Below are positions 13,998 to 32,000 of a stretch of 32,000 nucleotides of DNA, piece by piece. The position numbers and the translations under genes are program-made. This DNA is from Nitrososphaerota archaeon (GTDB lineage Archaea; Thermoproteota; Nitrososphaeria_A; Caldarchaeales; Calditenuaceae), in NCBI GenBank assembly GCA_041641295.1, contig JBEPYO010000001.1:14574-46573 (forward strand). Reading direction: 5' to 3'. Below the pieces are notes generated by a model. The model was not told where the DNA came from. It ran no database searches and saw only the letters and a list, made by a program, of their open reading frames with translations. Positions within the stretch are counted from its first letter, which is position 1. Every line of letters starts with the position of its first letter.

Positions 13998-14128
13998 GCG
14001 GGGGTGGCCGAGCCAGGTCAAAGGCGGCGGGCTTAAGATCTCGTGGAACGAGATAGGGAGACCCGCTCCCGTAGGCCAGAAATCAAATCGGGCGGAAGGG
14101 TTCGTGGGTTCGAATCCCACCCCCCGCA
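13998..14128 (+). tRNA. tRNA-Leu (anticodon UAA) interrupted by two introns
   Basis: Exons give GCGGGGG TG GCCGAGCCAGGTCAAAGGC G GCGGG CTTAAGA CCCGC TCCCGTAGGGGTTC GTGGG TTCGAAT CCCAC CCCCCGC A. There is a ~23-nt insert after position 37 (about 14038-14060) and a ~22-nt insert inside the variable arm (about 14076-14097). Confidence 0.85.
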
Positions 14129-17531: not shown

Positions 17532-17552
17532 ATTCCCTTTGTAAAACATAAA

Positions 17553-17562
17553 GTATTTAAAA
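17553..17562 (-). promoter_or_regulatory. TATA-like box for merA
   Basis: The minus strand reads TTTTAAATAC, centred ~27 nt upstream of ATG 17531. This supports the shorter start. Confidence 0.4.
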
Positions 17563-17778
17563 CCTCTGGTAAAGATGCTTAACCTTTTTGAAATACTTGT
17601 AAAAATTTGCATTGGAAGAGTAACTTTGAGTTAACAACTCTTACAAGGTAGGGTTTTCCGCTAATGCTTTAACTCTTATCCTTCGGTTGGCTGTCTCTAC
17701 AATCTACTTCTCAGGATATTTCCATATTATAACGGAAGCGTTATATCCCACATATAATGACATTATGGTCGTAAGGTG

Positions 17779-18312
17779 ATGAATGGCTTGACTGAGCTTA
17801 ACGGCCTAAATCTGGAAAAGCTTGAGGAGCTTGTGAGAATAGTTGCTTCTCAGAAGGAGAAGGCTGAGGAACTCAATGTATGGAGGGCTAGAGTTAAGTG
17901 GACTGGAGGATTCCAAAGCAAGGCATACGTGAGGAACCACACCTTCATCATAGATGAGCCTGCTGATCTAGCGGGTGTAGACATGGCCCCCAACGCTGTT
18001 GAATATGTGCTGTCGGCACTGGGTGCATGCCTGACTGTAGGGTTTGTCCTAAATGCCACAAAGAGAAACGTCAAGATAGATGACCTAGAAATTAGCCTGG
18101 AGGGAAGGATAGACAATATACTTAATTTTCTGGGCTTGAGCGAGCAGGGTCATCCTGGATACCGTGAGATAAAGGCGAAACTATACGTTAGATCATCGGC
18201 CGATGCTAAAACCCTTGAAGAGATTTGGAAGAAGACGGTTGAGACATCTCCTGTGGGGAACACCCTCTCAAGAAACGTGAAGATAATTCCAGAACTATCT
18301 GTGGTGAGCTGA
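17779..18312 (+). CDS. OsmC/Ohr-family protein
   Basis: FIIDEPADLAGVDMAPNAVEYVLSALGACLTVGF and the C-terminal SPVGNTL region fit the OsmC-like fold pattern. Start at ATG 17779 or GTG 17776. Confidence 0.7.
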   Translation: MNGLTELNGLNLEKLEELVRIVASQKEKAEELNVWRARVKWTGGFQSKAYVRNHTFIIDEPADLAGVDMAPNAVEYVLSALGACLTVGFVLNATKRNVKIDDLEISLEGRIDNILNFLGLSEQGHPGYREIKAKLYVRSSADAKTLEEIWKKTVETSPVGNTLSRNVKIIPELSVVS

Positions 18313-18317
18313 TAAAA

Positions 18318-19478
18318 ATGGGCCGGCTGTTTACTACAAGTGTTGTTGGAAGCTGGCCTAGGCCCCCGTGGCTGCTTGCAGAGCTGAGGAGAAAGAACAA
18401 GGGCGAGATAAGCTATGATGAGTTCAGTGCCATAGCCGACGAGGCTGTTTTGTTAGCCGTAAAATACCAAGAGGATGCGGGCATAGAGGTTTTGACTGAT
18501 GGGGAGCAACGTAGAGATAACTTCTACTCCTTTGTAGCGGACAAGCTAGAGGGAATAAAGCTCATGACGGTGGCCGAGGTGATGGACTTTGTAGAAGACA
18601 GCTCAAGATATGAGCAGCTTTTAAGAGCCCTAGATGTCCCAGCCTTCGCCATCAAAAGCCCAGTAGTTGTTGGACCTGTCAAGAAGAAGAGACCAATTGC
18701 TCTAGACGAGTTGGAGTTCCTCCGTAGACACACAAAACATGAGGTGAAGGTAACGCTCCCGGGGCCCTACATGCTCACCAGGGCGAGCTGGATAGACCCT
18801 GTCTCACGTGCAGCCTACTGGAATAGGGAGGAGCTTGCGAGGGAGTATGTTAGGCTGTTAAGGGAGGAGATAATCCAGCTAAGGGATGCCGGTGCGTCAT
18901 TCATCCAGCTCGATGAGCCCACATTGACAGAAGTTGTGTACGGCGAGGCGTCCAAGCAGACATTCATGTGCGCTGCCATCTTCTCAAAGATCGACCCGAA
19001 GGAGGAGCTGAACTTTGCAACCGAGCTGATAAACAAAACAGTTAAAGGAATTGACGGCGTCAGACTAGGGATCCACGTCTGCAGAGGAAACTGGAGCACA
19101 AGGGAGGAGGCATTGCTGAAAGGCGACTATAGGCCGCTAATCCCATACTTCCAAGAGATGAAGGTGAGGCAATTTGTTCTCGAATTCGCAACACAAAGGG
19201 CTGGAGAACTCTCAGTCTTTAAAGACGTTTCAGGCATAGAAGAACTTGGGTTGGGAGTAATTAATCCGAGAGTACGTGAAGTTGAAAGCCCAGACTCGAT
19301 AGTCAAGAAAGCCGAGGAGGCTGTCAAATACTTCGACCCGGATAAAATCTTTCTAAACCCAGACTGTGGCTTCGGAACATTTGCAGAATCCCCTGTAAAC
19401 ACACCAAAAACGGCATTTCAGAAGCTGAAAAACATGGTTGAGGCTGCCTCGATACTCCGAAAAAGATACGGCGGATAA
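18318..19478 (+). CDS. metE: Cobalamin-independent methionine synthase, short archaeal form (MetE C-terminal-domain type)
   Basis: TTSVVGSWPRPPWL, TDGEQRRDNF, IQLDEPTL, IHVCRGN (His/Cys Zn ligands), NPDCGF (Cys ligand). Confidence 0.8.
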   Translation: MGRLFTTSVVGSWPRPPWLLAELRRKNKGEISYDEFSAIADEAVLLAVKYQEDAGIEVLTDGEQRRDNFYSFVADKLEGIKLMTVAEVMDFVEDSSRYEQLLRALDVPAFAIKSPVVVGPVKKKRPIALDELEFLRRHTKHEVKVTLPGPYMLTRASWIDPVSRAAYWNREELAREYVRLLREEIIQLRDAGASFIQLDEPTLTEVVYGEASKQTFMCAAIFSKIDPKEELNFATELINKTVKGIDGVRLGIHVCRGNWSTREEALLKGDYRPLIPYFQEMKVRQFVLEFATQRAGELSVFKDVSGIEELGLGVINPRVREVESPDSIVKKAEEAVKYFDPDKIFLNPDCGFGTFAESPVNTPKTAFQKLKNMVEAASILRKRYGG

Positions 19479-19537
19479 TCCTATTTAACTACATAGCATT
19501 TTTTCTCGTCTCATGTATAGATCCTTCATCATTGTGG

Positions 19538-20023
19538 TCAGGTTTTAGAAGTAGGTTGTTGCGGCGCTGTCAATTTAAAGGTGAAAACGCCCTTATCTGT
19601 GATGAGTGCTATGTTGTAGACTGTTCCGGGCTCCCAAGCAATCCCGATGTACAGATTTGTTATTCCGCGGGGAGGAATCACGCATTGCGAGCCAACTATG
19701 TATGAACATCTCCATCCCCCATAGGGGGCAAATACAGCCTCGCTCCCCCTAAATAACTGGGAGCTCGATAAAGGTTCAAACCTCAGCTCGACACCGTTCA
19801 CCTTGATGCTTTTAATCAAGACAGGCTCTACATGCTCGTTCGCCACTGCCAGAGATAGCTGCGAAAGACCTCTCGCAAAGTTGTATCCTTTGATATTTAG
19901 CGTCGTGGAAACAGTTGGACTGTATGGCTTCATAAAGTCCAGTATACCTATTGATACGACTACCAAGCCTAGAGCCGCGACCAGCATAAGGGCTAGTGAT
20001 GTCCGTCTTTGCGCGTCACCCAC
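19538..20023 (-). CDS. Membrane-anchored hypothetical protein (N-terminal TM + probable beta-rich ectodomain), last gene of the Fe-S/NrfD/cupredoxin cluster
   Basis: GTG start. MGDAQRRTSLALMLVAALGLVVVSIGIL anchor. Its start overlaps the upstream stop by 8 nt (GTGGGTGA). Confidence 0.4.
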   Translation of the reverse strand: MGDAQRRTSLALMLVAALGLVVVSIGILDFMKPYSPTVSTTLNIKGYNFARGLSQLSLAVANEHVEPVLIKSIKVNGVELRFEPLSSSQLFRGSEAVFAPYGGWRCSYIVGSQCVIPPRGITNLYIGIAWEPGTVYNIALITDKGVFTFKLTAPQQPTSKT

Positions 20024-20963
20024 GCGGCATCCCCTCCCGCCTCAGCCTGAGAATAGATCGGACAGTCCACAGCACTATCATCCAAGCCGTTACGACGACA
20101 GATGTGGCCAAGACGACCAAGACAGTATTTGCTCCCGCCTGAACGCCGACCAGCCTAGGGTCAGGCCACAGGTTCTCACCTCGAACGGATGTTTCAGAGA
20201 GATCGATTGGAAGCCGCGGTGGTGATGCAATAGTAGAGGTAATGGTGAGAGTTGCGTTCGCTGGCTTGAACCTTCCGCTTCCTCCAAAGACGGCTAAGAT
20301 TTGTCTTGGACCAATTTTTGGTGGCTTGTATTCCAAGGCGGCTATTCCATCTATGTTGGTAGGTATAGCCCCTATGCTCACATATCCTAGAGGGGTATAG
20401 TCTAGGAACTCGACTAGGATTCCTTGTACGGGTTGACCGTCCTCCGTCATAGCCTTGGCGGTGAGGAGATATATGCCGGGCTGACTCTCGTCGGCTAAAA
20501 TGGTCAGGCGTAAGGACTCGATGGATGTCTCGGTCTCCCTGACAACTAATACCCCGTTTTGAAGGTTCTCATGACCCCTACAGCGTAATATGCATCTAAT
20601 GCTGAATGCTCCGGGCTGGTTAATTGTCAGCTCTACAACCTTTTTCTCCTCCTCTCCGCTGAGTTCAACCTTTACACCAAATTTTTCAATCTCGATTATG
20701 TGGGGATTACCCATTTTCATGCCATGATCTCCGTACAAAAAGGTTATCCTAACCGTGTCTCCTTGGTTCACCTCTATCCTGAGTTCTGCTGAGCCGTTGA
20801 ACCCCATACTTGAGACGATTATTGTAAACTCCTTCACCGAGGGTTGAGTGTTCGAGCTTGACACCTCTATTTGGGCCACTGCCGTATGTGGTAGGTGTAG
20901 GGCTACGAGATACAGGCTACTCAACAGCATGATAATTGTGAGAAGAGTTGTAGACCTCCTCAT
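20016..20963 (-). CDS. Cupredoxin-like + Ig-like-domain protein with an N-terminal signal/anchor and a C-terminal TM; start moved to ATG 20963
   Basis: MRRSTTLLTIIMLLSSLYLVAL. Cupredoxin-type pattern: RIEVNQGDTVRITF...NPHIIEIEKFGV...PGAFSIRCILRCRGHENLQNGVLVV. Then a beta-rich segment and the TM VLVVLATSVVVTAWMIVLW. ATGA overlap with the NrfD-like stop at 20960-20963. Confidence 0.5.
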   Translation of the reverse strand: MRRSTTLLTIIMLLSSLYLVALHLPHTAVAQIEVSSSNTQPSVKEFTIIVSSMGFNGSAELRIEVNQGDTVRITFLYGDHGMKMGNPHIIEIEKFGVKVELSGEEEKKVVELTINQPGAFSIRCILRCRGHENLQNGVLVVRETETSIESLRLTILADESQPGIYLLTAKAMTEDGQPVQGILVEFLDYTPLGYVSIGAIPTNIDGIAALEYKPPKIGPRQILAVFGGSGRFKPANATLTITSTIASPPRLPIDLSETSVRGENLWPDPRLVGVQAGANTVLVVLATSVVVTAWMIVLWTVRSILRLRREGMPRG

Positions 20964-22903
20964 TTCAAGATCGCCTCCTCGATCTGCATGGCAAATCTCT
21001 TTAGTGCCTCCGCTCCGTAGTATCCAAGGATACTGACTTTGTAGTGGTTCTGCCACACCTCTAGCTTGGGCGGCGACGTTTTCTCATTTAGTAGGGCGAC
21101 GCTGCCCCTCGGAAGTTCGAATTTAGTCACGTTCGGCAAAATCGTCTCAGGAGGGCCTAACTTGTCGCCTATCCTCTGGATAAGGACTAGAACGGATACC
21201 GGCTCATCGTAGAGGGTTAGACTGCGTGTTGAGGGGTCATGGAATGCTAGAGATATTAGGGCTGCCTGCCGGTTGTATCTTATGCTAGTGAGTCTGGCTG
21301 AGCCCAGCTTTTGAAGGGCCTCCCTCCTGACTCTGAGTCCTAAGTCATTAAAAGCACTCATATCGGATGCGATCCCCAGGACACCCAGGCTTCTTCTTAA
21401 CGGCGTAGCGGCGCCTCTGCCGCTTGACAAAGCCTTTATGAGGCTCTTAAGCTGCGCGCCCCCAACAAGGCCTGCTACCAGCCCCACCGCTGCTACAGCG
21501 ACTGTCTTCATAGCACTCCTTCTAACTTCGATAGGCCTCTCAACCTGGGCTTCTGGATGTGGGACGATTAGTTTTAGAACTGGATAGGCAGAAGGCTCGG
21601 CAGCCAAGGCAGCCGGAGCCTGCTCATGGCCCACCGTCTCCCATATAGATACGATGGGGAAGAGCTTGGTGAAAACCAAGTAGATGAGCATGAAGAGTGA
21701 AAATGCGCCCGCGGTTATCGATAGCTCGACCCATGTGGGAACATATGTCCCCCAAGGATATGGGAGCTGAGGCACTGCTAGGCTGGGGACAACGATGTTC
21801 CACCTCTCTAACCACATGCCAATGTTGACTAGGATCGATGCAGCGAGGTAGCCCTTAATGTTGCGTGTGCCAGGGTAGGCGAGAAGGAAGGCCGGGACTA
21901 TGAGGCCGCCAACTATCTGTACCCAGAAGTATGGAGCATAGGAGCCCCAAAAGAGTGATGAGAGCCACACACCCTCAAGCTCTTTAGTGCCTAGATACTT
22001 GTAGCCGACCACCAAGTGTTCATTGATTGTCAGGTAGACGAGTATCAGAACTAGTGCGAGCATCAGTTTTGCCATTGTGTGTAGATGTTTTTCCGTGATA
22101 AACGCGTCTAGACCTAGAAGCTTTCTGACGAGGGCCATGATGATAATCACTGTTGCTACTCCTGAGAGGACGGCCCCAGCCACGAAGTATGGTCCGAAAA
22201 TTGTGCTGTTCCAGCCGACCCTCAACGTCATGGCAAAGTCCCAAGAGACAACTGTATGCACGGTTATCACCATGAATACTATTAGTATGGTGAGTATGCG
22301 CATGGCCTGCTCAAGTATTCTCCACTGTTCAGGCGTCCCCATCCAATTCAGAGACAGCAGGCTGTATAACCTTCTCCTCCATGATGATGCATCTTTCACA
22401 GAGTCTCTGAGTACTGCTATATCGGGAATCATCGGAACATACAGGTACAGAGTGGACGTTACGAAGTATGTTCCAATCGCTATGAAGTCCCATATTAGAG
22501 GCGACTGAATTCTTCCAAACATCAGTAAGTTCAATATCCGGTCCGGCCTGCCTAAGTCTATTAAAGGCATAAGCATGGCGACAAACAGTGAGGCAAAGGT
22601 TACGGCCTCCGCCATTCTTGTTATCGGGCGCCGCCAATCAGAGCCTGTCAGCCTGAGGATTGCAGAGATGAGGGCCCCTACGTGGCTTATTCCGATGAAG
22701 AAGACGAAGTTTATGATATAGAACCCCCAAACGACCGTTCTCAAGCCCGTAACTCCTAGACCTGTGGCAAGCTGTACGGACCAGGCGTAAACCCCCCAAG
22801 CCACCACAGCTAAGAGGGTGGCGAAGGCTACGTAGAAGAGGGTTCCATGACGCTGTACTGGCCTGATGAGAGCGTCAATCTTCAGATAGGTTGATGCGGT
22901 CAT
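20960..22903 (-). CDS. NrfD/PsrC/ActC-like polytopic quinone-interacting membrane subunit fused to a ~220-aa C-terminal extension
   Basis: Residues 1-~425: WGFYIINFVFFIGISHVGALISAILRL...RMAEAVTFASL...LIDLGRPDR... and about 10 hydrophobic helices, typical of the NrfD family. Residues ~426-647: linker, one extra TM (TVAVAAVGLVAGLVGGA) and an unassigned soluble domain. Confidence 0.8.
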   Translation of the reverse strand: MTASTYLKIDALIRPVQRHGTLFYVAFATLLAVVAWGVYAWSVQLATGLGVTGLRTVVWGFYIINFVFFIGISHVGALISAILRLTGSDWRRPITRMAEAVTFASLFVAMLMPLIDLGRPDRILNLLMFGRIQSPLIWDFIAIGTYFVTSTLYLYVPMIPDIAVLRDSVKDASSWRRRLYSLLSLNWMGTPEQWRILEQAMRILTILIVFMVITVHTVVSWDFAMTLRVGWNSTIFGPYFVAGAVLSGVATVIIIMALVRKLLGLDAFITEKHLHTMAKLMLALVLILVYLTINEHLVVGYKYLGTKELEGVWLSSLFWGSYAPYFWVQIVGGLIVPAFLLAYPGTRNIKGYLAASILVNIGMWLERWNIVVPSLAVPQLPYPWGTYVPTWVELSITAGAFSLFMLIYLVFTKLFPIVSIWETVGHEQAPAALAAEPSAYPVLKLIVPHPEAQVERPIEVRRSAMKTVAVAAVGLVAGLVGGAQLKSLIKALSSGRGAATPLRRSLGVLGIASDMSAFNDLGLRVRREALQKLGSARLTSIRYNRQAALISLAFHDPSTRSLTLYDEPVSVLVLIQRIGDKLGPPETILPNVTKFELPRGSVALLNEKTSPPKLEVWQNHYKVSILGYYGAEALKRFAMQIEEAILK

Positions 22904-23685
22904 ACAGAACCGGCACCCCTAGGCGGTAGATAGATCACGCGCGGCTCTGTGCCTAACTCTTCTTTCAACCTGAAGGGCGCCCTACCTTTAACGATCTCTG
23001 ACAGCCTGACAGTCTCATCGCCATTTGACACGACGTCTTCAGAGGCGTCTCCGAAGAATAAGGCCCTGTGTCCCGCCCTCGTACATGCCTCTACACAGGC
23101 GGGCAGTCTCCCCTCTAAAATCCTGTGCCTACACCATATACACTTTTCAACAACCCCACGCCTGTGGGGAATATTGTAGTCTGGGGAGTAGGGGGTGTTT
23201 GCTTCGTCTTCACTTTGTGGGGGGTCGAACCAGTTAAAGAAGCGGCGCTGGTAGGGGCATGCAGTTATGCATATACGGCATCCGATGCATCTCTCCTGAT
23301 CTATTAGGACTATATGGTCTTCTGAATAGAATGTTGCGCCTACCGGACATACTTTGGCACACGGGGCATTCTGGCAGTTCTGACAGAGCACTGGCAAAAA
23401 ATACCCATCCCTCTCAAACACCTCTATCCAAGGCTGTCGCCCGTTGTAGTTATGCTCTCCCCAAGCAGGAGGAACCCTCATCTCTTCCTGGCAGGCCTCA
23501 ACACATTTCATGCAGCCGTTACATCGATCCGTGTCTATGACGAATACCCACTTTCTCTCCTCTGCCCTTACCCTCGAAACCTCCAGCTCTGTTGGCTGAC
23601 TAGCCTCGGGAGTCGAGGCCGACGCTACAGTACCGGCAAGCGCCGATACTACTCCAGCTAAGAGTTCACGTCTCGAGATCTTCAC
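22900..23685 (-). CDS. NrfC/PsrB/DmsB-type four-cluster [4Fe-4S] ferredoxin subunit with a Tat signal; start probably GTG 23685
   Basis: MKISRRELLAGVVSALAG (twin-arginine). Cys groups CNGCMKCVEAC, CQNCQNAPCAKVCP, CIGCRICITACP and CIWCRHR...LPACVEAC. GGAGG lies 8 nt upstream of GTG 23685. ATGA overlap with the NrfD-like start at 22900-22903. Confidence 0.85.
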   Translation of the reverse strand: MKISRRELLAGVVSALAGTVASASTPEASQPTELEVSRVRAEERKWVFVIDTDRCNGCMKCVEACQEEMRVPPAWGEHNYNGRQPWIEVFERDGYFLPVLCQNCQNAPCAKVCPVGATFYSEDHIVLIDQERCIGCRICITACPYQRRFFNWFDPPQSEDEANTPYSPDYNIPHRRGVVEKCIWCRHRILEGRLPACVEACTRAGHRALFFGDASEDVVSNGDETVRLSEIVKGRAPFRLKEELGTEPRVIYLPPRGAGSV

Positions 23686-23801
23686 AGGCTCACCCTCCAA
23701 AACATGGATAGGCCTAGATATTCACCAGCGTGCGTGGCCGTAGGTTCTATGCGTCTTTGCCCCAACGGAAACGCTCCCATCAAAACTGCTGAGGAAATCA
23801 T
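23682..23801 (-). CDS. Speculative 39-aa small ORF coupled to the Fe-S subunit gene
   Basis: MISSAVLMGAFPLGQRRIEPTATHAGEYLGLSMFWRVSL. The ATG lies ~36 nt downstream of an A/T box (23831-23843, minus strand). Its TGA overlaps the GTG of the next gene (GTGA). Confidence 0.15.
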   Translation of the reverse strand: MISSAVLMGAFPLGQRRIEPTATHAGEYLGLSMFWRVSL

Positions 23802-23852
23802 AGTGAGAAGAATAGGAGTGATAATCAAACAATAATAAAAATTAGTGTGATG

Positions 23853-23859
23853 AAAAAAA
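23853..23859 (-). terminator. Oligo-T tract (T7 on the minus strand) downstream of the first cupredoxin gene
   Basis: A7 on the plus strand, 33 nt past the stop at 23892. Archaeal terminators are commonly oligo-T runs. It is followed by an A/T-rich box that could serve as an internal promoter. Confidence 0.3.
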
Positions 23860-23891
23860 GGTGTGGGAGACCTTGTCGAGTACACATCAAC

Positions 23892-24467
23892 CTACCCCTC
23901 TAATACGACCAAGTATCCAACCATGTATGCGTGATCTGCATCACAATCGTCTTTTTCATGATCAAATGGTATACCACATCTAAACTGGAACACTCCAGCT
24001 TTGTCGGCAACAAAGGACACCATCACGGTACGCTTAGCTTCGTCGGGCTGCTCCTCCTTCCCAGGTATCCTGCCTGTATCGACGCCAAAGTCTGCCAGAA
24101 CAAAGGAGTGCGCGTGGCTCCGCGGGTTCTTCACCGTCAGCTCCACCTTGTCACCCTTCCGCACAACTAGAACAGGCGGCTCCCATCTATGGAACTCGCC
24201 CGTAAGCTCCTCTTCCTCATTCACCTCTTGTACTATCTTACCCTCACCCAGTACGATTGTAAACTTTTGAGTCTTCGGGCCTACCTTTGCCGTTAATTCG
24301 TCAAGAGTTACAGCCTGCTCGTTCAGCTGTCCAGACAGCCTATTGAGCTGGCCTGATATTGCATCGAGCTGAGCCGTTGTAGACGACGTTTGTCCGACGA
24401 CTAGTGCTACCGCTGCGACGGCGATGACCAAGCTGACAAGACTGAGAACCAAGTACGCTCTGCTCAT
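23892..24467 (-). CDS. Membrane-anchored cupredoxin-like protein with a coiled-coil linker and a CuA-like C...CxxxHxxM motif; start probably ATG 24467
   Basis: MSRAYLVLSLVSLVIAVAAVALVVG anchor. AQLDAISGQLNRLSGQLNEQAVTLDEL heptad-like linker. VVRKGDKVELTVKNPRSHAHSFVLADFGV and GVFQFRCGIPFDHEKDDCDADHAYMVGYLVV. The track start (GTG 24530) would add 21 residues. Confidence 0.6.
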   Translation of the reverse strand: MSRAYLVLSLVSLVIAVAAVALVVGQTSSTTAQLDAISGQLNRLSGQLNEQAVTLDELTAKVGPKTQKFTIVLGEGKIVQEVNEEEELTGEFHRWEPPVLVVRKGDKVELTVKNPRSHAHSFVLADFGVDTGRIPGKEEQPDEAKRTVMVSFVADKAGVFQFRCGIPFDHEKDDCDADHAYMVGYLVVLEG

Positions 24468-24518
24468 GACCACATTCCCTCGCACATCTTGAACCGCTAA
24501 CACGGAAAAATGCGTTTC

Positions 24519-24613
24519 TAGGGAATACACTATGCAGGACCAAACGCAAACCCTATTCCCTACCAGAAATGCAACGGAAATTTTCTATTGTCGTAGGGAA
24601 AGAAAAATTTCCG
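24519..24613. promoter_or_regulatory. Cluster of inverted repeats in the divergent intergenic region (candidate operator sites)
   Basis: TAGGGAATA (24519-24527) with its perfect complement TATTCCCTA (24554-24562), and a third TAGGGAA at 24594-24600. CGGAAATTTTC (24575-24585) faces GAAAAATTTCCG (24602-24613). A related ACGGAAAAATGCG is at 24502-24514. Confidence 0.3.
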
Positions 24614-24694
24614 CTGGTTTTTCTCTCAAACCATCCTCTATCCTCGGAAAAACTTAAGTAAAAGGTAAAGATATTTCACCGGCGCCGGACATCG

Positions 24695-24704
24695 AATATA
24701 TAAG
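24695..24704 (+). promoter_or_regulatory. TATA-like box upstream of the HTH-RDD gene
   Basis: AATATATAAG is centred ~24 nt upstream of GTG 24724. Confidence 0.4.
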
Positions 24705-24723
24705 AGCCTGCATAACATTTACA

Positions 24724-25540
24724 GTGACCTTCTCTGAGCTCGAGGAAGCCTCAAGAAGATAAGGGGCAAACTGAGGATGATTTTTACCGCGTCCTCTGCC
24801 ACCCGCTTAGGCGAAAGATCATTGTTCTGCTCCACGAAAGAATAGAGCTGTCATATTCTGAGATGTTAAGAGAGCTTGCGGTGGAGGAGGGTCTCTTCAA
24901 CTTTCATCTAAGATCTATGCGTAAACTCATAGACATAACAGAGGATGGAAAATATGTCCTATCAAACATGGGAAGGCTTGCATACGACGTCATCACCAAG
25001 GTGCAGTCCAGCTTAGCCACCGTGGACACGCTCTTTCCGAAGCCAGCCCTCACCCACAACATATTGGCGAGAAGAGTCGCAGCCTTCCTTATCGACGGTC
25101 TAATCTTCTTCGTATTCAGCGGAGTATGGTTAGACCCATTCCTCTGGAACGCTCTTATGCAATCGATAATGCACATCACCGAGCTGAGAGTTCTCCACCC
25201 CTGGCTATTCCACCCAGAGCATATCCCTGAGATCGGGGGATTGATCTTTCGAGTAGTTGCAGCCTACTCACATATCTTCTTCGCCATATTCATCACGCTC
25301 ACACTACTGGATGCATACAAGGGTCAAACCCCGGGACGCTATCTTCTCGGGATAAGAGTGGTAACAATAGCTAATCGAAGGCTGGATCTAATAGAAGCAG
25401 GGATAAGAAACATTGGGAAGGTCTTTCTACTCCCGCTGGACCTAATCATAGGCCTTCTCTTCTTTTACAAGCGCGGCTACATAAGATTCTTCGACTACTA
25501 CACAAAAAGCAAAGTGGAGATGGTGAAAGGAGGTCTCTAG
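24724..25540 (+). CDS. ArsR-type winged-HTH fused to an RDD-family membrane domain; N-terminus interrupted by a frame change near 24760
   Basis: The in-frame region upstream of ATG 24863 (no canonical start) reads ...EDDFYRVLCHPLRRKIIVLLHERIELSYSEMLRELAVEEGLFNFHLRSMRKL, an ArsR-like HTH. Downstream, ARRVAAFLIDGLIFFVF...GQTPGRYLLGIRVV...LLPLDLIIG is the RDD pattern. GTG 24724 opens MTFSELEEASRR, then TAA (24760-24762) in the -1 frame relative to the main ORF. Confidence 0.55.
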
Positions 25541-25862
25541 CAAGCATTAAAGGGTCTTAACAGGATGTAACAAAGAATGTTTTAAGGGGCCCGGTCATAT
25601 CATCGCCTCCACACCAGCCTTGGCCAAGAGACATGTCTAGGCTGAAAGGCTTGGCAGAAGCGAAAAATGCGCCTCACCCCAGCTGCTGGGTATGATACAC
25701 ATCTATGCAGGATGGTTAGGATCTTCTCTTGACCCTTTTATTGGTTCCGGATACCTTTATAATTTATGGGTAAGGTAAGCAGATAACCATATCACAACAT
25801 CAAAGAATTACACATACCGTGGAGACATTGGTTTTAAATCATAGTTTTTATAGCACTGATGA

Positions 25863-26450
25863 ATGTTAAACGGTATCATGCACAATGTCACTATTAAGGT
25901 GTTAACACCAGCTCTGCTTGAGGATTATCTAAAATTTTTTGACGAATACGCGTTCGCAGATAACCCACAATGGTTCGGCTGCTACTGCATGTATTTTCAC
26001 TTCAACGGAAGTAATGAAGAATGGGACGCCCGCCCTCCTTTAGAAAACCGAGACGCGGTCAGCGAACTTATCCGTCGTGGTAAGTTTCAAGGCCTTCTTG
26101 CATATGTTGATGGCAAGCCTGTTGGCTGGTGTCATGCTGCACCACGTATGGAAATGTCTAGACTAGGCACAATCCCTGAACTGCGGATTGAGGATGCTGA
26201 AAGAGTTGGCTCGATCGTCTGCTTTATCATAGCTCACCCGTTTCGTCGCAGGGGAATTGCCCGCCTCTTGCTAGATGCTGCATGCGACTTGCTCTCTAGT
26301 CTGGGTCTCTCAATTGCAGAGGCCTATCCAGTTAAGGAGGCGAAGACAGATGCAGAGAACTATAGAGGGCCACTAACCCTGTACTTGTCGGCTGGCTTCA
26401 AACCCTTCAGAGAACTTAAAGACACGATAATAGTGCGTAAAACACTGTGA
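25863..26450 (+). CDS. GNAT-family N-acetyltransferase
   Basis: IVCFIIAHPFRRRGIARLLLDAA is GNAT motif A (R/Q-x-x-G-x-A/G), followed by the C-terminal LYLSAGFKPF motif B region. Confidence 0.75.
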   Translation: MLNGIMHNVTIKVLTPALLEDYLKFFDEYAFADNPQWFGCYCMYFHFNGSNEEWDARPPLENRDAVSELIRRGKFQGLLAYVDGKPVGWCHAAPRMEMSRLGTIPELRIEDAERVGSIVCFIIAHPFRRRGIARLLLDAACDLLSSLGLSIAEAYPVKEAKTDAENYRGPLTLYLSAGFKPFRELKDTIIVRKTL

Positions 26451-26679
26451 AGTAATTTATGACTTTGTTCAACCGCGGTCAGACATTTCGAGTGATTGGA
26501 TCACATCAAGTGATCGTATAATTTTAGATAACTCCTAAACTGTCTTCTGGCATATAGATATCACGCTTCGGAATACAAAACTAATGATTGGACATAAAAT
26601 GGCGCAGCAGTTAAGCCAAGAGCAGGCCTCTTTTTGGGATATTTGTTTTGCTTGTTAGGCCCGTTCATGATGTATGCCC

Positions 26680-27045
26680 TTATAGGGGTTTGGCGTATTT
26701 GGCTACAGTATCTTGGGAAAGCTCCAGTGCTATGAATGGCTCGTCTCCAACAACCCACGCATCATGGCCAGGCAAGATTTCATAGGCGCTTCCAGGCTGC
26801 AGCTCAGCGACTTCCTTGCCATCACTCGCAACCACCTTAAGACGACCTGAAATCACATATCCTATGTGATGTAACTGACAACTATCAGTCTTTGTAATCG
26901 GCTTGATAGACTTTGACCACCTCCATCCAGGCTGCAGGATCATACGCATTATAGAGAATCCTCCTAGATTCACCACCTCTACTTTCCCGTTCTCAAAGCT
27001 TCTCACATCATCCGGCGATTCTAATCGTTTATTCCTTATGCTCAT
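26680..27045 (-). CDS. Cupin-domain protein
   Basis: 121 aa. GWRWSKSIKPI...CQLHHIGYVISGRLKVV..DG...LQPGSAYEILPGHDAWVVGDEP fits the two-motif cupin beta-barrel pattern. Confidence 0.7.
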   Translation of the reverse strand: MSIRNKRLESPDDVRSFENGKVEVVNLGGFSIMRMILQPGWRWSKSIKPITKTDSCQLHHIGYVISGRLKVVASDGKEVAELQPGSAYEILPGHDAWVVGDEPFIALELSQDTVAKYAKPL

Positions 27046-27202
27046 GACTAACTCTTATTTACGTACATATTAAGTCTAGCTGGCCCACCGATTTTAACGT
27101 AGTTCAACATGGATTAATAGGTAAACCGGGAGCACGTATGCGTGCCAATCCGTGTAGGGATATTATCCTTTGCCGCGGCATAGTTACAGATAATTTATCA
27201 GG

Positions 27203-27832
27203 TTAGTTTGTTTGTTTTTGTTTGAGTTTCTTGATTCTGGTGCGATACTTTTCTCTATAGAGTTGGAGGCATGAACGGCAACATAAGAAGGCGTATGCGC
27301 CTCCAGCCCTAAATGTAAGCGGCTCCCCTCTGATGGGTCCGCCACAGTAGTCACACTTCAGCTCGACCACTACCCCTTCTTCCAGTGGGAAACCTGGCTC
27401 ATCCCTCAAACTACGGATAATCATGATTACATTGTTTATCTCAAGTCCTTCGATGCGTGCTAGCTCTTCCTCGAACCGCTGGAATCCAACAAGGTCCTTG
27501 CAGGCAACCTTGATCAGTAGGTTACTTTCCCCACTTATGAGAAAGACACCACGTACCTGCTGCATAGCTAATATGCGTTCAATTATTTCTCTTGCCGTAT
27601 TGCCTTTCACCTTGGCGAATATTAGGCCGGCGGCCCCCCTGCCGAACGACTCAAGGTCTAGAACTGGAATGAAGCCTTTGAGCAATCCAGCCTTCTTGAG
27701 GCGCTCGACCCTATATGCAATTGTAGGCGTTGTTGTTCTCAGGGTGCGGGCTATTTGTCTATATGATGCCCGCGCATCCCGCATGAGAGCCTGCAGTATT
27801 GCTATGTCTAACTTGTCAAGAGTTAGGGGCAT
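27203..27832 (-). CDS. Lrp/AsnC-type HTH regulator with a C-terminal TRASH metal-binding domain (CopR-like); start moved to ATG 27832
   Basis: MPLTLDKLDIAILQALMRDARASYRQIARTLRTTTPTIAYRVERLKKAGLLKGF (Lrp HTH), an RAM-like middle part, and C-terminal CDYCGGPIRGEPLTFRAGGAYAFLCCRSCLQLY (CxxC...CxxxC TRASH pattern). Confidence 0.75.
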   Translation of the reverse strand: MPLTLDKLDIAILQALMRDARASYRQIARTLRTTTPTIAYRVERLKKAGLLKGFIPVLDLESFGRGAAGLIFAKVKGNTAREIIERILAMQQVRGVFLISGESNLLIKVACKDLVGFQRFEEELARIEGLEINNVIMIIRSLRDEPGFPLEEGVVVELKCDYCGGPIRGEPLTFRAGGAYAFLCCRSCLQLYREKYRTRIKKLKQKQTN

Positions 27833-27853
27833 GCACAACATCATCACTATGGG

Positions 27854-27864
27854 GATATATATGG
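27854..27864 (-). promoter_or_regulatory. TATA-like box for the Lrp-TRASH regulator gene
   Basis: The minus strand reads CCATATATATC, centred ~27 nt upstream of ATG 27832. Confidence 0.4.
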
Positions 27865-27894
27865 TTGCGGTACTTTTCATCCATAGAGCCCTGC

Positions 27895-28842
27895 TTATTC
27901 TGAAGCCATCTCCTCTACAAAATTCCATTCAAAGACCCTGTCAACACCGTACAACCCTTTCAGGATAAGTCTGATAGAGCGGGGTTGGTAATCTAATGGT
28001 GGGAATGTTAGTATCCCGTCTCTATGATGACCGCCCGGAGGAGATCCATTCCATGACTTTGGATAATAAATTCTACCATTATCGTCCTGAAGTATGGCGA
28101 CAGAGAGCATGTCCCAATATAGGTCACCTACGTGAGTATCCATTTTAATATTGAAGGAGAGTTCTTTGCCTACCGAGTATGGGAGTGGGGTCACCTCTAC
28201 TGTCAGCCCATTTGCCTCACTGACTTGCTTGGGGAGCATTATCACGTTGCTGCTCTCCTGCTCTGATGACATGGCGACAGTACCTAGAATTCCCCAGCCC
28301 AGCATAAACGAGCCTATTATAACAGAAGTTACTAGTGCCGTATTTTTAGCCTTAGCCATATTTATACGCATCAATCCAGCTAGGATACCCTTGTCTTCAT
28401 AGAGTCTGTGCCTCTGTATCAGGTTTAGCATGAAGGTGATGCCAACAACATTTGATAGCAGCCCTACGACGATGAGGTATGGTTGGTAGGCTGTAAGGAA
28501 TATGGCCGCGGCCGTAAACCCTACCAGGGGCAAAACATCAGTTATGTGGTGGATGCAGCAAGCTAACATGGCGGTTGTTGAAACCCCTCCCGTTATGGAT
28601 ACGCAGGCAGTGCCTTCGTGTAGGGTTGCGGCTCTGTGTCTCGCGTAGGAGAAGAGTGAGACTTGGACACCAAATCCCGCCAACAATGGAATCATCAGAG
28701 GCGAGAGGAGAATAAACTGTTCAACGGCGGCCGCTAGAGACTGTGCAATAACCATTATGAAGAAATAGACGGTGAACAAAGCCCCGGCAGACAGCAAGCC
28801 GATGGCTACGTGCCTGTTCAAATAATTTGGCTTAGCTACCAT
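27895..28842 (-). CDS. Uncharacterised membrane protein with an intramembrane CC-HH motif and a C-terminal beta-rich ectodomain carrying GGHH
   Basis: About 5-6 hydrophobic helices. GGVSTTAMLACCIHHITDVLPLVGFTAAA carries a vicinal Cys pair followed by PLV..GF, reminiscent of MerT/MerF helices. C-terminal VEVTPLPYSVGKELSFNIKMDTHVGDL...SPPGGHHRDGILTFPPL. GGAGG lies 9 nt upstream of the ATG. Confidence 0.45.
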   Translation of the reverse strand: MVAKPNYLNRHVAIGLLSAGALFTVYFFIMVIAQSLAAAVEQFILLSPLMIPLLAGFGVQVSLFSYARHRAATLHEGTACVSITGGVSTTAMLACCIHHITDVLPLVGFTAAAIFLTAYQPYLIVVGLLSNVVGITFMLNLIQRHRLYEDKGILAGLMRINMAKAKNTALVTSVIIGSFMLGWGILGTVAMSSEQESSNVIMLPKQVSEANGLTVEVTPLPYSVGKELSFNIKMDTHVGDLYWDMLSVAILQDDNGRIYYPKSWNGSPPGGHHRDGILTFPPLDYQPRSIRLILKGLYGVDRVFEWNFVEEMASE

Positions 28843-28912
28843 GGGGCATCCCCTCCAAAGAGATACCTTGTACTGCGCAACAATAGTCTGAAGACAGGCT
28901 GGGCAGCATCAT
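28832..28912 (-). CDS. Speculative 26-aa ORF with a vicinal Cys pair upstream of, and overlapping, the membrane-protein gene
   Basis: MMLPSLSSDYCCAVQGISLEGMPHGS. AGGAGG (28924..28919) lies 6 nt upstream of ATG 28912. The stop TAA (28834..28832) overlaps the downstream start by 11 nt. Confidence 0.15.
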   Translation of the reverse strand: MMLPSLSSDYCCAVQGISLEGMPHGS

Positions 28913-29017
28913 GCATTACCTCCTTTCATACATTAAATCCTTAAACTAAAAGATATGCCTTCCTTGTTACAAATAAAAAGTGTGAGACTCGCATACTTTA
29001 CATGTGTAAAGACGGAT

Positions 29018-29028
29018 GTATTTATTGG
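29018..29028 (+). promoter_or_regulatory. TATA-like box for the cupredoxin-like gene of the cop locus
   Basis: GTATTTATTGG is centred ~26 nt upstream of ATG 29049. It lies inside the over-extended track ORF. Confidence 0.4.
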
Positions 29029-29048
29029 AGCAGGTCTTATACTATTTG

Positions 29049-29522
29049 ATGAAAGGTAAGAAAACAAAACGAAGGCAGCGAGGCCTCCTTGATGCATTGA
29101 AGGCAGCTCTTCCACTTATTCTGTTTATTATCTTCTTGGGTTGGCTGCTCTGGCCTCAGACACCACAGTCATACTCACAGTCGCAGATAACGTCGCAGTC
29201 CCCGGCACAGTCTGGAGCTGGCAGGGTAGTAGAAGTCCAAGCAGATATGGCTGGCTTTAGACCAAATATAATCCGAGCAAGGGTGGGAGAGAAACTGACT
29301 GTAAGACTTGTCAGTCTAGACAATGAGTACCACGTTGATGGAGGGGGCAAGCACCAATTTGCCATCGACGAGATGGGTGTGAATATAGTCGCGCCTCCCT
29401 TAGGCGCAAGTGAAGCTTCCTTCACACCTACTCAGGCAGGAACCTACGTATTTTACTGCGATATCTGTTGCGGCGGCCGTAATAACCCGTCAATGAGGGG
29501 CCAGTTAATAGTCGAGAGTTAG
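29049..29522 (+). CDS. Membrane-anchored cupredoxin-like protein with an atypical Cys-rich site (CDICCGG), start moved to ATG 29049
   Basis: MKGKKTKRRQRG + TM LPLILFIIFLGWLLW. FRPNIIRARVGEKLTVRLVSLDNEYHVDGGGKHQFAIDEMGV ... GTYVFYCDICCGGRNNPSMRGQLIV has cupredoxin topology and a MxGxLxV tail. Asn sits where the second His ligand is expected. Confidence 0.5.
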   Translation: MKGKKTKRRQRGLLDALKAALPLILFIIFLGWLLWPQTPQSYSQSQITSQSPAQSGAGRVVEVQADMAGFRPNIIRARVGEKLTVRLVSLDNEYHVDGGGKHQFAIDEMGVNIVAPPLGASEASFTPTQAGTYVFYCDICCGGRNNPSMRGQLIVES

Positions 29523-29698
29523 AAACGACTTCACGATTGATCGGTCTACTGCGGGTCACGTATTAAAAATCCGCCTAATAGGTTCCTCTCTTAAATGTGT
29601 ATTCGTATAGTCTGATACATGTTAGATTTTTAGTCCCCATTCTTTACATTCGTAAAGAGCTAGCTTTTTACTCGACTGTGCTCAATATTGTGGTGAAG

Positions 29699-29917
29699 AT
29701 GTTCGGGTTCGGGAAAGCTAAGGATCCTGTGTGTGGCATGAGCGTAGAAAAGAAGAAAGCGATCAAGAGAATTGTCGGAGGTGTTGAGTATTATTTTTGT
29801 AGCGAGCATTGTGCAAATGAATTTGAAAACAAGCATGGGGGGTCAGTTGAACTTGAAGAGGACGAGCTGCACAGCCACGGTGGACATAGAGGGCACCATC
29901 ATACGGGCTGTTGTTGA
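29699..29917 (+). CDS. YHS/TRASH-domain metal-binding protein with a His-rich, Cys-terminated tail (CopM/CopT-like); start moved to ATG 29699
   Basis: MFGFGKAKDPVCGMSVEKKKAIKRIVGGVEYYFCSEHCANEF (DPVCGM...YYFCS..C), then ELHSHGGHRGHHHTGCC. Confidence 0.75.
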   Translation: MFGFGKAKDPVCGMSVEKKKAIKRIVGGVEYYFCSEHCANEFENKHGGSVELEEDELHSHGGHRGHHHTGCC

Positions 29918-29972
29918 TAACTGGTGCGGCTTACAAGACTTTTTGGACGTATCTCAGTAGAGGTGTAATTTT

Positions 29973-32000
29973 GTGAAGGAGAAGAAAATAGACCTGCAGA
30001 TTGGTGGAATGCACTGCGCCTCATGCGCTCAGACGATAGAGAAGGCTCTAAGAGGCTTAGAAGGAGTGATAGATGTGAGTGTTAACTTCAATGCTGCTAA
30101 AGCTTACGTCGTGTATGACCCGGGTAAAGTGCACCTCTCTGACTTGAAGAGGATTATAAGTGATGTGGGGTATAGAGTTCTCACAAATAAGGTTACCTTA
30201 AAGATTGAGGGGATGACTTGCGCCTCCTGCGTCCAGAAGGTTGAGAATGCGCTCAGAAATGTGGATGGAGTCTTTGATGCTACGGTAAATTTGGCCTTGG
30301 GTAAGGCAACAGTCGAATACGCATCTGACGTTAAAATTTCGGAGATGGTTAAAGCGGTCAGGGAGGTAGGTTATGAGGCGTCGGAGGCTGTTGAGGCAGA
30401 GCTGACGATTGACAGGGGAAAGCTTGAGAGGAGGAAGGAGATAAGACGGCAGACAATCAACCTTGCCCTTGCAACTCCACTAGCGTTGATAGTTATGCTG
30501 GGAGAGTTCCGCATGTATTGGCTGAACTATTTTTATGTTCCCGAGTTTATGGAGAATAAATTCTTCCTCCTTGCTATCACTTCTATAGTAGTGTTTGGTC
30601 CTGCTAGGCAGTTCTTTGTTAACTCCTTTAGAGGGCTGATGCACGGCGCAACGGACATGAACCTTCTCTACGCCACAGGTATAGGCGCTGCATACTCAGT
30701 CAGCGCTTTCAGTACATTCTTCCCCTTCGGGGGTGGGCTCCCAAGCGTCTGGTTTGAGGCAGCAGCCCTTCTAACAGCCTTCATAGTCCTAGGACGCTTC
30801 CTAGAGGCTATAACGCGTGGAAGAACCTCAGAGGCCATCAGGAGGCTCATGGAGATTAAGCCTAAGACTGCGAGGGTGATCCGGGATGGTGAAGAGGTGG
30901 AGATATCAGCGGATGATGTTCAGATCGGGGATGTAGTCTTAGTGAGGCCAGGTGAAAGGATTCCCGTAGACGGTATAGTGATTGAAGGATACTCCTCCGT
31001 AGATGAGTCCATGATCACGGGGGAAAGTATGCCAGTGGACAAGAAGGTAGGTGATGAGGTTATAGGTGGAACGGTGAACAAGGCAGGCTTTCTCAAGTTT
31101 AGGGCAACTAAAGTTGGTAAGGATACCGCTTTAGCACAAATTATAAAGCTTGTTGAGCAGGCTCAGACCTCTAAGCTCCCAATTCAGAGGCTGGCAGACT
31201 GGGTTGCAGGAAACTTCATCTTCGCCATACACGTTTTAGCTCTGATAACGTTTCTCTTCTGGTTCTTCATTGGCTATGAAGCATTCTTCGTACCTAAGGG
31301 CGAGGAGATCTTTACTGGGTTCTGGTACCGCGTCGTTCCCCAAGCCTCTCCAGCCACACTCGCCCTGCTTATCTCAATAGCTGTACTAGTCATCTCATGC
31401 CCATGCGCCGTGGGCCTCGCCACTCCCTCAGCTGTTATGATGGGAACAGGCAAGGCGGCGGAGAACGGGATACTGATAAGAAGTGGTGAAGCCCTAGAAA
31501 TGGCCCATAAGCTTGACGTCATCATCTTCGATAAGACAGGTACTCTAACTAAAGGGGAGCCGTCAGTAACCGATGTAGTGCTAAAGGCAGCACCAGCTAT
31601 ACGCGCCAACCCACATCCTCGTGACGAGAGATGGCTGCTCTTGATGGCGGCTATTGCTGAGAAGAGGTCGGAGCACCCGCTAGCGAAGGCAATTGTGAAA
31701 AGGGCTAGGGAACTTGGTCTCGACATACCAGACCCAGAGTCATTTGAGGCTATACCGGGGCAGGGGGTCCAAGCAGCATACAATGGAAAGACAATCCTTC
31801 TAGGCAACAGAAAACTGATGACCAGCAAGGGAATAAGGATAGACGATCTGGAGGAGAAGATAGCAGCCCTGGAGGACGAGGGGAAGACAGTTATGATCCT
31901 CTCTTATGATGGCGAGGCCTGCGGAGTTATAGCGGTCGCAGACACTCTTAAGGAACACTCTGCAGAAGCCGTTAATATTATTCAGGAGATGGGCATCGAA
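29973..32000 (+). CDS. copA: Copper-translocating P1B-type ATPase, N-terminal 676 aa (partial, continues beyond the right edge; absent from the ORF track)
   Basis: Manual translation from GTG 29973 (GAGGTG lies 7 nt upstream): [26 protein letters not shown]... plus a second HMA domain, [23 protein letters not shown]-region ITGESMPV, the CPC motif [12 protein letters not shown] and the phosphorylation site [10 protein letters not shown]. Open to the window end. Confidence 0.9.

Follow-up and report, generated by a model that had tools for sequence, protein, structure and literature searches.

The 32,000-nucleotide (nt) window analyzed here, from a Nitrososphaerota archaeon (GCA_041641295.1, contig JBEPYO010000001.1, positions 14,574-46,573, forward strand), contains a genuine archaeal cop locus, with a CopR-type sensor, a YHS chaperone and a CopA copper(I) pump, in an enlarged form. 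Six-frame open reading frames (ORFs) and Pfam/NCBIfam searches identified the regulator, the YHS protein and the copper P-type ATPase, with two genuine genes between them, one for a 315-amino-acid (aa) membrane protein and the other for an anchored cupredoxin. The evidence supports a role for both additional genes in copper (soft-metal) homeostasis, and we favor, with slightly better than even confidence, the reading that they belong to an accessory copper(I) relay that works alongside CopA and deals with copper both within the membrane and outside it. The core of the cluster is of a known kind, and the accessory families are unannotated; the literature searches that could be run turned up no study of these families and no functional study of DUF2933, PCYCGC, CYCXC or DUF5676 proteins. 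The features of the locus are as follows.

27203-27832, minus strand: CopR-type regulator, 209 aa, with an Lrp/AsnC helix-turn-helix (HTH), a RAM domain and a C-terminal TRASH domain.
27895-28842, minus strand: membrane protein of 315 aa, in which residues 1-197 form a five-helix CC-HH domain and residues 200-315 an outward-facing beta-sandwich.
28021-28140, minus strand: DTHVGDL (residues 235-241) and GGHHR (residues 270-274) of the ectodomain, with three invariant histidines.
28546-28563, minus strand: ACCIHH motif (residues 94-99) in helix 3, with invariant C95, C96, H98 and H99, and M92, D102 and P105 nearby.
28996-29011: palindrome CTTTACATGTGTAAAG, putative operator 37 nt upstream of the cupredoxin ATG.
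29049-29522, plus strand: signal-anchored, CuA-derived cupredoxin, 157 aa, Cupredoxin_1; alternative starts at 29016 and 29025.
29454-29495, plus strand: YCDICCGGRNNPSM, metal-site loop of the cupredoxin, from alignments with homologues and with CuA.
29642-29657: second copy of the palindrome, CTTTACATTCGTAAAG, putative operator 42 nt upstream of the YHS ATG.
29699-29917, plus strand: YHS/TRASH-type metallochaperone, 72 aa, Pfam YHS, with a His-rich tail ending in GCC.
29973-32000, plus strand, truncated at the window end: P1B-type copper(I) ATPase CopA, with a GTG start, HMA and ATPase domains and CPC.
28832-28912, minus strand: 26-aa entry of the ORF list with Cys-Cys, unsupported as a gene.

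The core trio was confirmed by its Pfam and NCBIfam domains at the positions given in the initial annotation. The regulator matched HTH_AsnC (PF13404; 3.9e-13, 49 bits against a cut-off of 27), AsnC_trans_reg, the RAM domain (PF01037; 1.1e-9, 38.5 bits against 25), and the archaeal TRASH domain Arc_trans_TRASH (PF08394; 3.3e-10, 40 bits against 27). It therefore has both domain traits of an archaeal CopR, an AsnC-type HTH with RAM and a C-terminal TRASH domain, and its cysteines (C160-X2-C163-X20-C184-X3-C188) fit the TRASH pattern C-X2-C-X19-22-C-X3-C. An orthologue was present in a Caldarchaeum locus (L001; 1e-46). The regulator ORF starts 62 nt downstream of the 315-aa ORF on the same strand, and it may have its own promoter, since a ATATATAT box lies about 25 nt 5' of its ATG. 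The YHS protein (PF04945; 4.5e-11, 43 bits against 30.3) is encoded by an ORF ending 55 nt ahead of the copA start, and it belongs with the YHS/TRASH metallochaperones of the CopT/CopM type. A GAGGTG located 7 nt 5' of the GTG start of copA suggests that the two genes are co-transcribed.

The window holds the part of CopA that includes two HMA domains, the E1-E2 ATPase and hydrolase domains and the CPC motif. The full-length protein, taken from identical metagenomic DNA (contig L168), has 843 aa, would end at window-equivalent position 32504, carries CPC, FYNATAVP (the YN motif) and MALSS, and passes the NCBIfam copper-ATPase model TIGR01511 (595 bits against a cut-off of 397). CPC in helix 4, YN in helix 5, MxxSS in helix 6 and N-terminal HMA domains define the P1B-1 type, to which CopA belongs. 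The C-terminus of the YHS protein (29864-29917) is a His-rich tail with a terminal Cys-Cys, HSHGGHRGHHHTGCC, comparable to L001 6133-6348; tails of the GCC type occurred in 8 of 33 small YHS proteins from loci of the membrane-protein family and in none of 27 from bacterial cupredoxin loci.

Published archaeal cop clusters comprise CopR, an optional TRASH or HMA chaperone, and CopA (PMC7830388). The present locus resembles those of Saccharolobus, Thermococcales and Ferroplasma in its Lrp-type TRASH regulator, small YHS/TRASH protein and copper P1B ATPase, and in the apparent co-transcription of chaperone and pump. In contrast to the two or three genes of published clusters, two more genes lie here between regulator and chaperone, and a Cys-motif membrane protein, a CYCXC protein, a small transmembrane protein and an unplaced 203-aa protein are encoded with copA. 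The initial annotation had counted two or three inserted genes; two are borne out, and the third, a 26-aa Cys-Cys peptide, is unsupported. Its ORF exists, follows a GGAGGT and overlaps the start of the membrane-protein gene. We rejected it as a gene because it has no counterpart in L001 and short ORFs are plentiful here, 78 of at least 25 aa occurring in the surrounding 7 kb with this one among them.

The 315-aa protein is a member of a large family without annotation. It matched no Pfam or NCBIfam family and no PDB sequence, and for its membrane domain a sequence-profile search of the PDB gave nothing below E 0.35 and Foldseek nothing below E 1e-3. The first homologue search recovered 122 homologues, every one annotated as 'hypothetical'; the family is present in at least 593 species-level genomes of archaea and bacteria, and its profile matches 3420 clusters at 50% identity. 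The ORF is present as first described and both of its motifs, CC-HH and GGHH, are invariant across the family. In the membrane domain the invariant positions are G56-F-G-x-Q60, M92, A94-C-C-x-H-H99, D102, P105 and G108, with Y119, N131 and G134 near-invariant. The AlphaFold model (pLDDT 87.9) consists of five long helices and then a beta-sandwich (residues 206-307); alignment and model together map the invariant residues to predicted membrane helices 2, 3 and 4, and the ACCIHH motif falls within the model helix at residues 79-107. We propose that this motif is an intramembrane soft-metal site.

Domain fusions among the homologues indicate how the protein lies in the membrane. N-terminal additions of 2xHMA, HMA, YHS or YHS+HMBD were found, none with a signal peptide, which places the N-terminus in the cytoplasm and argues for a cytoplasmic metal donor or acceptor. 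Of 80 loci, 73 had both the membrane domain and the C-terminal domain (C-domain); the two were fused in 56 of these and encoded by separate genes in 17, and in the other 7 only the membrane domain was found. When encoded separately, the C-domain bears its own lipoprotein or anchor signal, so it lies outside the cell; a cytoplasmic N-terminus with an external C-domain is consistent with five helices. Six loci have an in-frame stop between the two domains. Selenocysteine or read-through was considered for these and rejected: after each TAA or TAG comes a new start Met with a signal or lipoprotein sequence, as in ordinary two-gene splits. Genes for LGT (prolipoprotein diacylglyceryl transferase) occur directly after or near stand-alone C-domain genes (L164 5474-6265 and L166 6572-7189), which fits the lipoprotein signals of the split C-domains. 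In one further protein (P0412), an ICMT/PEMT-like methyltransferase is fused to the N-terminus of a CC-HH membrane protein, and genes for ICMT/PEMT-like membrane methyltransferases recur by metal genes (L001 9345-9989, L165 and L166).

The C-domain alignment is invariant in T-H, in the H-H inside GGHH, in a Gly and in a Phe, and near-invariant in a Trp. Stand-alone anchored C-domain proteins of 140-165 aa form more than 2000 clusters, all unannotated, and their genes sit among those for YHS, HMA, DUF2933, CsoR and CopA proteins. In some loci that encode CopA and YHS proteins, Met-rich MGMMG tracts precede the domain. Met-rich tracts of the MGMMG type are a hallmark of copper(I)-binding resistance proteins. 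Two examples, L081 420-1205 and L083 5167-5985, are stand-alone anchored proteins with long MGMMG tracts before the three-histidine C-domain; their loci also contain genes for CopA, YHS, beta-propeller, DOMON and molybdopterin oxidoreductase proteins. The C-domain had no Pfam match, its three invariant histidines differ from the CopC and PCuAC motifs, and Foldseek gave weak beta-sandwich matches, to CrdA (E 2e-3, TM-score 0.53) and to DUF4426 (E 1e-3). A match to DUF5643 (E 0.044, 14 bits against a cut-off of 34) was uninformative.

Linkage to copper genes was counted for the membrane family in its 80 best loci, 35 of which have at least 5 kb on both sides. A P1B ATPase gene was present in 39 of the 80 and lay within 300 nt in 12, in several cases overlapping the family gene. 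Among the 35 loci with long flanks, 19 had a P1B ATPase within 5 kb and 22 had either an ATPase or a small YHS gene within that distance. The neighboring ATPases were of the copper(I) type (CPC in 32 of 35, MxxSS in 31 of 35). Prokaryote genomes usually hold one to three such ATPases, so we estimate that chance would account for co-location in about 1% of cases. For the cupredoxin, 80 loci of its YCDICCG subfamily, all bacterial (L084-L163), were sampled; a P1B ATPase occurred in 43 and a YHS gene in 38. The neighborhood comparison suggested by the initial annotation thus came out in its favor, and the juxtaposition in the window is not due to chance, since both additional families recur beside P1B ATPase and YHS genes elsewhere.

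Other recurrent neighbors of the membrane family were TlpA-like thioredoxins (in 23-29 of the 80 loci), PadR-TRASH regulators, DUF2933-like proteins, ICMT-like methyltransferases and, once, CsoR. The closest relative (57% identity) is L001, a locus of a Caldarchaeum metagenome-assembled genome, where copR is followed on one strand by YHS, a small protein, copA, a small membrane protein, an ICMT-like gene and, last, the membrane-protein gene.

The second inserted gene encodes the anchored cupredoxin-like protein with a CDICCGG site that had been noted at first, and the domain assignment was upheld (Cupredoxin_1, PF13473; 43.3 bits, gathering cut-off 27). The sequence YCDICCGG, at residues 136-143, is unvarying in homologues, and the invariant residues of the 157-aa form are H95, D97, H102, C137, C140, C141, N146 and M149. 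The YCDICCG subfamily was found in 239 species genomes, chiefly of Chloroflexota and Betaproteobacteria. A PDB profile search aligned the protein to the CuA domain of nitrous-oxide reductase (NosZ; 2.4e-8), in which H102 corresponds to the first His, C137 and C141 to the bridging Cys, and M149 to the Met. A CuA center has two Cys, two His and one Met in the arrangement H-X34-C-X3-C-X3-H-X2-M, and the center here is incomplete: an invariant Asn, preceded by a one-residue insertion, takes the place of the second His, and C140 is an extra Cys. Like the CuA domains of cytochrome oxidase subunit II and nitrous-oxide reductase, the protein has the fold and the H-X34-C-X3-C...M spacing; unlike them, it has the Asn, an extra invariant Cys beside the second Cys and an extra upstream His/Asp, and it is a stand-alone anchored domain in a metal-resistance context.

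The cupredoxin model (pLDDT 82) has a helix at residues 19-42 followed by the beta-domain, and it matched 4hcf, 2cua and CupA (4f2e) in Foldseek, the best match being a B. anthracis Cupredoxin_1 protein (4hcg, TM-score 0.87). Eight Lys/Arg precede the helix and an uncharged Ser/Gln/Pro linker follows it, a distribution that predicts an N-in, C-out orientation with the cupredoxin domain facing outward. Neither this protein nor the 315-aa protein fell into an unrelated characterized family in the Pfam, NCBIfam, Foldseek and PDB profile searches.

CupA of Streptococcus pneumoniae is a membrane-anchored copper(I) chaperone with a cupredoxin fold, encoded in a cop operon (PMC7558416). The archaeal cupredoxin shares with it the N-terminal membrane anchor, the fold (Foldseek E 5e-7, TM-score 0.75, 26% identity to 4f2e), a position beside copA and a cysteine-based site. 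However, the domain of CupA is cytoplasmic, whereas the one studied here is predicted from its charge distribution to face outward; its ligands are His, His, CxxCC, Asn and Met with CuA spacing, compared with Cys/Cys/Met/Met in CupA; and, unlike CupA, it is usually paired with a Cys-motif membrane protein. Donation to the N-terminal domain of CopA in the manner of CupA would not be expected here, since CopA of this locus has HMA and not cupredoxin N-terminal domains. CopI is an extracytoplasmic copper-stress cupredoxin that is likewise encoded with copA (PMC7558416). The protein studied here resembles it in having a cupredoxin fold outside the cytoplasm and in the link to copA, but CopI is plastocyanin-like with a type-1 site, and the NCBIfam CopI model scored E 0.059 and 13 bits against a cut-off of 280.

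The gene neighbors of the cupredoxin subfamily tie it to membrane proteins of two kinds. A CC-HH membrane-domain gene lay within 1.5 kb in 11 of the sampled loci, with a C-domain gene alongside in 10, and some of these loci are divergently arranged, as in the window. In 79 of the 80 loci, the cupredoxin gene directly adjoins one for a polytopic membrane protein with NPC and CTVPC motifs; the two form a near-obligate, unnamed two-gene module. This partner is about 280 aa long, its gene overlaps or abuts the cupredoxin gene, and it has no Pfam match above threshold, with a weak one to SfLAP only. Homology between the CC-HH domain and the Cys-motif partner was rejected (hhalign probability 0.2%).

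A match between the cupredoxin and an L001 protein (3e-6) was rejected as well; it covers a shared membrane anchor only, and the L001 protein is a member of the PCYCGC/CYCXC family. Within the present locus, the first 52 residues of the cupredoxin (window 29049-29204) share 44% identity (E 7e-13) with the CYCXC protein's anchor (L168 15553-15708), so two different thiol-rich ectodomains are carried on one anchor type in the same locus. The cupredoxin ectodomain itself is closest to bacterial (Chloroflexota) proteins. These similarities suggest domain shuffling, or horizontal acquisition of an ectodomain onto a resident anchor.

The promoters of the two plus-strand units appear to share a design. 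The pattern CTTTAC-N4-GTAAAG occurs twice in the 32 kb, compared with 0.06 occurrences expected, and both copies are in promoter position. Both lie within a 38-nt block common to the cupredoxin and YHS promoters, and an AT-rich box comes after each copy, some 25-30 nt ahead of the ATG (29049 and 29699). The shared palindrome and block argue for an operator/promoter design common to the cupredoxin gene and the YHS-copA operon, and the layout favors 29049 as the start of the cupredoxin. The palindromes are candidate CopR operators, and the cupredoxin gene and YHS-copA are probably switched on together by CopR when copper rises.

The locus extends beyond the piece considered in the initial annotation. 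Metagenomic contig L168 is 100% identical to window positions 19025-32000 (12,976 nt) and, past the window end, encodes four further proteins: a 72-aa small membrane protein, homologous to one that follows copA in L001; an unplaced 203-aa membrane protein; a 242-aa Cys-motif membrane protein, homologous to an L001 protein (3e-99) and to the bacterial cupredoxin partners (7e-17); and an anchored CYCXC/PCYCGC protein. At least the Cys-motif membrane protein and the CYCXC protein follow copA.

These observations support a membrane-spanning path with a cytoplasmic YHS/HMA donor or acceptor, an intramembrane Cys2His2 site and an outer three-histidine domain. In the relay that we favor, copper(I) on the cytoplasmic YHS protein would be handed to the intramembrane site of the 315-aa protein, the donor in homologues being the YHS or HMA domain fused to the membrane protein. 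The site would be built from Met92, Cys95, Cys96, His98, His99 and Asp102 of helix 3 and from Gln60 and Asn131 of neighboring helices, and the metal would move on to the protein's own outward three-histidine beta-sandwich. Outside the cell, copper would be held, buffered or redox-converted by membrane-anchored thiol-rich proteins, namely the CuA-derived cupredoxin, with its site of His, His, Cys-x-x-Cys-Cys, Asn and Met, and the CYCXC protein encoded beyond the window; these are probably serviced by the locus's polytopic membrane protein, which has two Cys motifs. Exported copper(I) would thereby be kept from re-entering the cell or damaging the envelope. An outward direction is favored for two reasons: copper-sensing regulators control the efflux operons to which the genes belong, and the outer components resemble sinks. 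The initial annotation had envisaged an additional extracytoplasmic copper route. Linkage to copper genes and the outward ectodomains agree with that idea; because the 315-aa protein crosses the membrane and also has a partner site in the cytoplasm, the route would not be wholly extracytoplasmic. A more specific proposal, which we advance tentatively and with less than even confidence, is that the CC-HH five-helix protein defines a class of its own among small membrane transporters or transmembrane metallochaperones for copper(I) (soft metals), receiving metal from YHS or HMA domains in the cytoplasm, passing it to its own three-histidine ectodomain and so feeding the anchored cupredoxin and the CYCXC protein.

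Known systems offer a parallel for such an arrangement. CopC-CopD/YcnJ and MerP-MerT also combine an outward metal-binding domain with a membrane domain that has intramembrane soft ligands, in resistance loci, and the ectodomain of the 315-aa protein weakly resembles CrdA, a CopC-family protein (PMC9182242). Pfam and hhalign detected no sequence homology to either system. The CC-HH membrane domain has five helices, compared with eight in CopD and three in MerT; its Cys-Cys pair is in helix 3 and not in the first helix as in MerT and MerC; and the soluble metal-binding fusions of its family are N-terminal and cytoplasmic, unlike those of CopC-CopD/YcnJ and MerP-MerT. Both known systems import metal, whereas outward transfer is the direction that we favor, tentatively, for the 315-aa protein.

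Several points weigh against the relay. Its architecture fits import equally well, as in CopC/CopD and MerP/MerT, and no energy-coupling element is evident, so outward transfer needs a postulated thermodynamic sink. About half of the sampled membrane-family loci have no cop gene within 10 kb, and the cupredoxin type occurred in just 3 of the 80, which makes its pairing with the membrane protein optional. In the model, confidence is lowest (pLDDT 64-77) for helix 3, which bears the motif. The palindrome was found in 0 of 166 related loci and the upstream sequences of L001 differ; the operator role is accordingly drawn from this window, and CopR is the regulator to which we would assign it.

A different function for the same proteins, which we regard as unlikely, is maturation of a cuproprotein in place of detoxification. 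The ATPase would supply copper to the outer face, the beta-sandwich would act like PCuAC, the thioredoxin-like and Cys-motif membrane proteins would be Sco/TlpA/CcdA-like, and the client would be the CuA-derived cupredoxin or another cupredoxin, such as the one encoded at 23892-24530. The descent of the cupredoxin from the CuA fold would be expected on this account, as would the TlpA-like thioredoxins near the membrane family, the Cys-motif partner next to nearly every cupredoxin gene, the molybdopterin/FeS oxidoreductase genes beside loci L081-L083 and the NrfD/FeS/cupredoxin module 3 kb away in the window. However, a copper-sensing CopR-type regulator governs the locus, the operator of the cupredoxin gene is common with the efflux operon, and other loci have CsoR, PadR-TRASH regulators and Met-rich tracts typical of resistance. 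The ATPase, with two HMA domains, passes the copper-ATPase model, and the CuA ligand set of the presumed client is incomplete.

We consider it quite improbable that the proteins form a thiol-disulfide redox system of the Scs/CcdA kind, in which the membrane Cys-Cys would send reducing equivalents outward and repair copper-oxidized cysteines, the CxxC of the cupredoxin being a redox center and not a metal site. Such a CxxC is indeed present within CDIC, the cupredoxin is paired with a membrane protein that has two Cys motifs, and thioredoxin-like proteins are encoded nearby. As a matter of general chemistry, however, a vicinal Cys-Cys disulfide is strained, and it is not known to relay electrons. 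Metal ligation is indicated by the three-histidine ectodomain, by the fusions to HMA and YHS domains and by the invariant His-His, Asp and Met around the Cys pair, and the CC-HH domain lacks detectable homology to the Cys-motif partner.

The least probable account, to which we give very little credence, is a MerT-like uptake protein for mercury or soft metals in general that would feed the MerA whose gene lies 10 kb upstream. A membrane helix with vicinal cysteines and fusions to HMA domains do resemble MerT and MerTP, hhalign pairs GG-x7-ACC of MerT helix 1 with helix 3 of the family, a bona fide MerA is present in the window and one stand-alone C-domain locus abuts a merR-merB-merA set, but the hhalign probabilities are low, no MerA-like gene was found within 10 kb in any of 83 related loci, the neighbors are copper-type ATPases and CsoR, and unrelated genes separate MerA from the cop locus. 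Homology of the CC-HH domain to MerT or MerC was rejected on the hhalign probabilities of 5.3% and 1.8%, the MerT query being 100% identical to annotated MerT, and the mercury alternative raised in the initial annotation is disfavored.

Copper(I) handling after export by P-type ATPases is poorly understood, especially in archaea and single-membrane bacteria. If the CC-HH protein does define such a new class, a trans-membrane copper relay that is unnamed and unstudied would be widespread in Archaea, bacteria of the Candidate Phyla Radiation (CPR), Chloroflexota and Nitrospirota. The locus offers candidates both for this handling and for what receives YHS/TRASH-bound metal: the CC-HH membrane family, the three-histidine domain family and a CuA-derived cupredoxin rebuilt to a three-cysteine site. 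These proteins are small and directly expressible, and with names for their families, metal-resistance islands could be better annotated across thousands of metagenome-assembled genomes.

Other genes of the window were examined alongside the locus. MerA (16110-17612, minus strand; TIGR02053, 531 bits against a cut-off of 454) has a C-terminal Cys-Cys tail (...MSCCVE); no recognizable merT or merP lies near it, and an OsmC-like gene (17776-18312) is divergent from it. A same-strand run at 19538-24530 (minus) encodes two unknown ORFs, a 647-aa NrfD/DsrP-like membrane protein, a DsrO-like 4Fe-4S protein and a weak, anchored cupredoxin (23892-24530); as a whole the run has the appearance of a quinone-linked membrane oxidoreductase that includes a copper subunit. 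The RtcB tRNA-splicing ligase is encoded at 6354-7850. A tRNA match at 13998-14128 (plus strand; 46 bits) covers 131 nt, against the 71 positions of the model, and thus suggests an archaeal tRNA with an intron.

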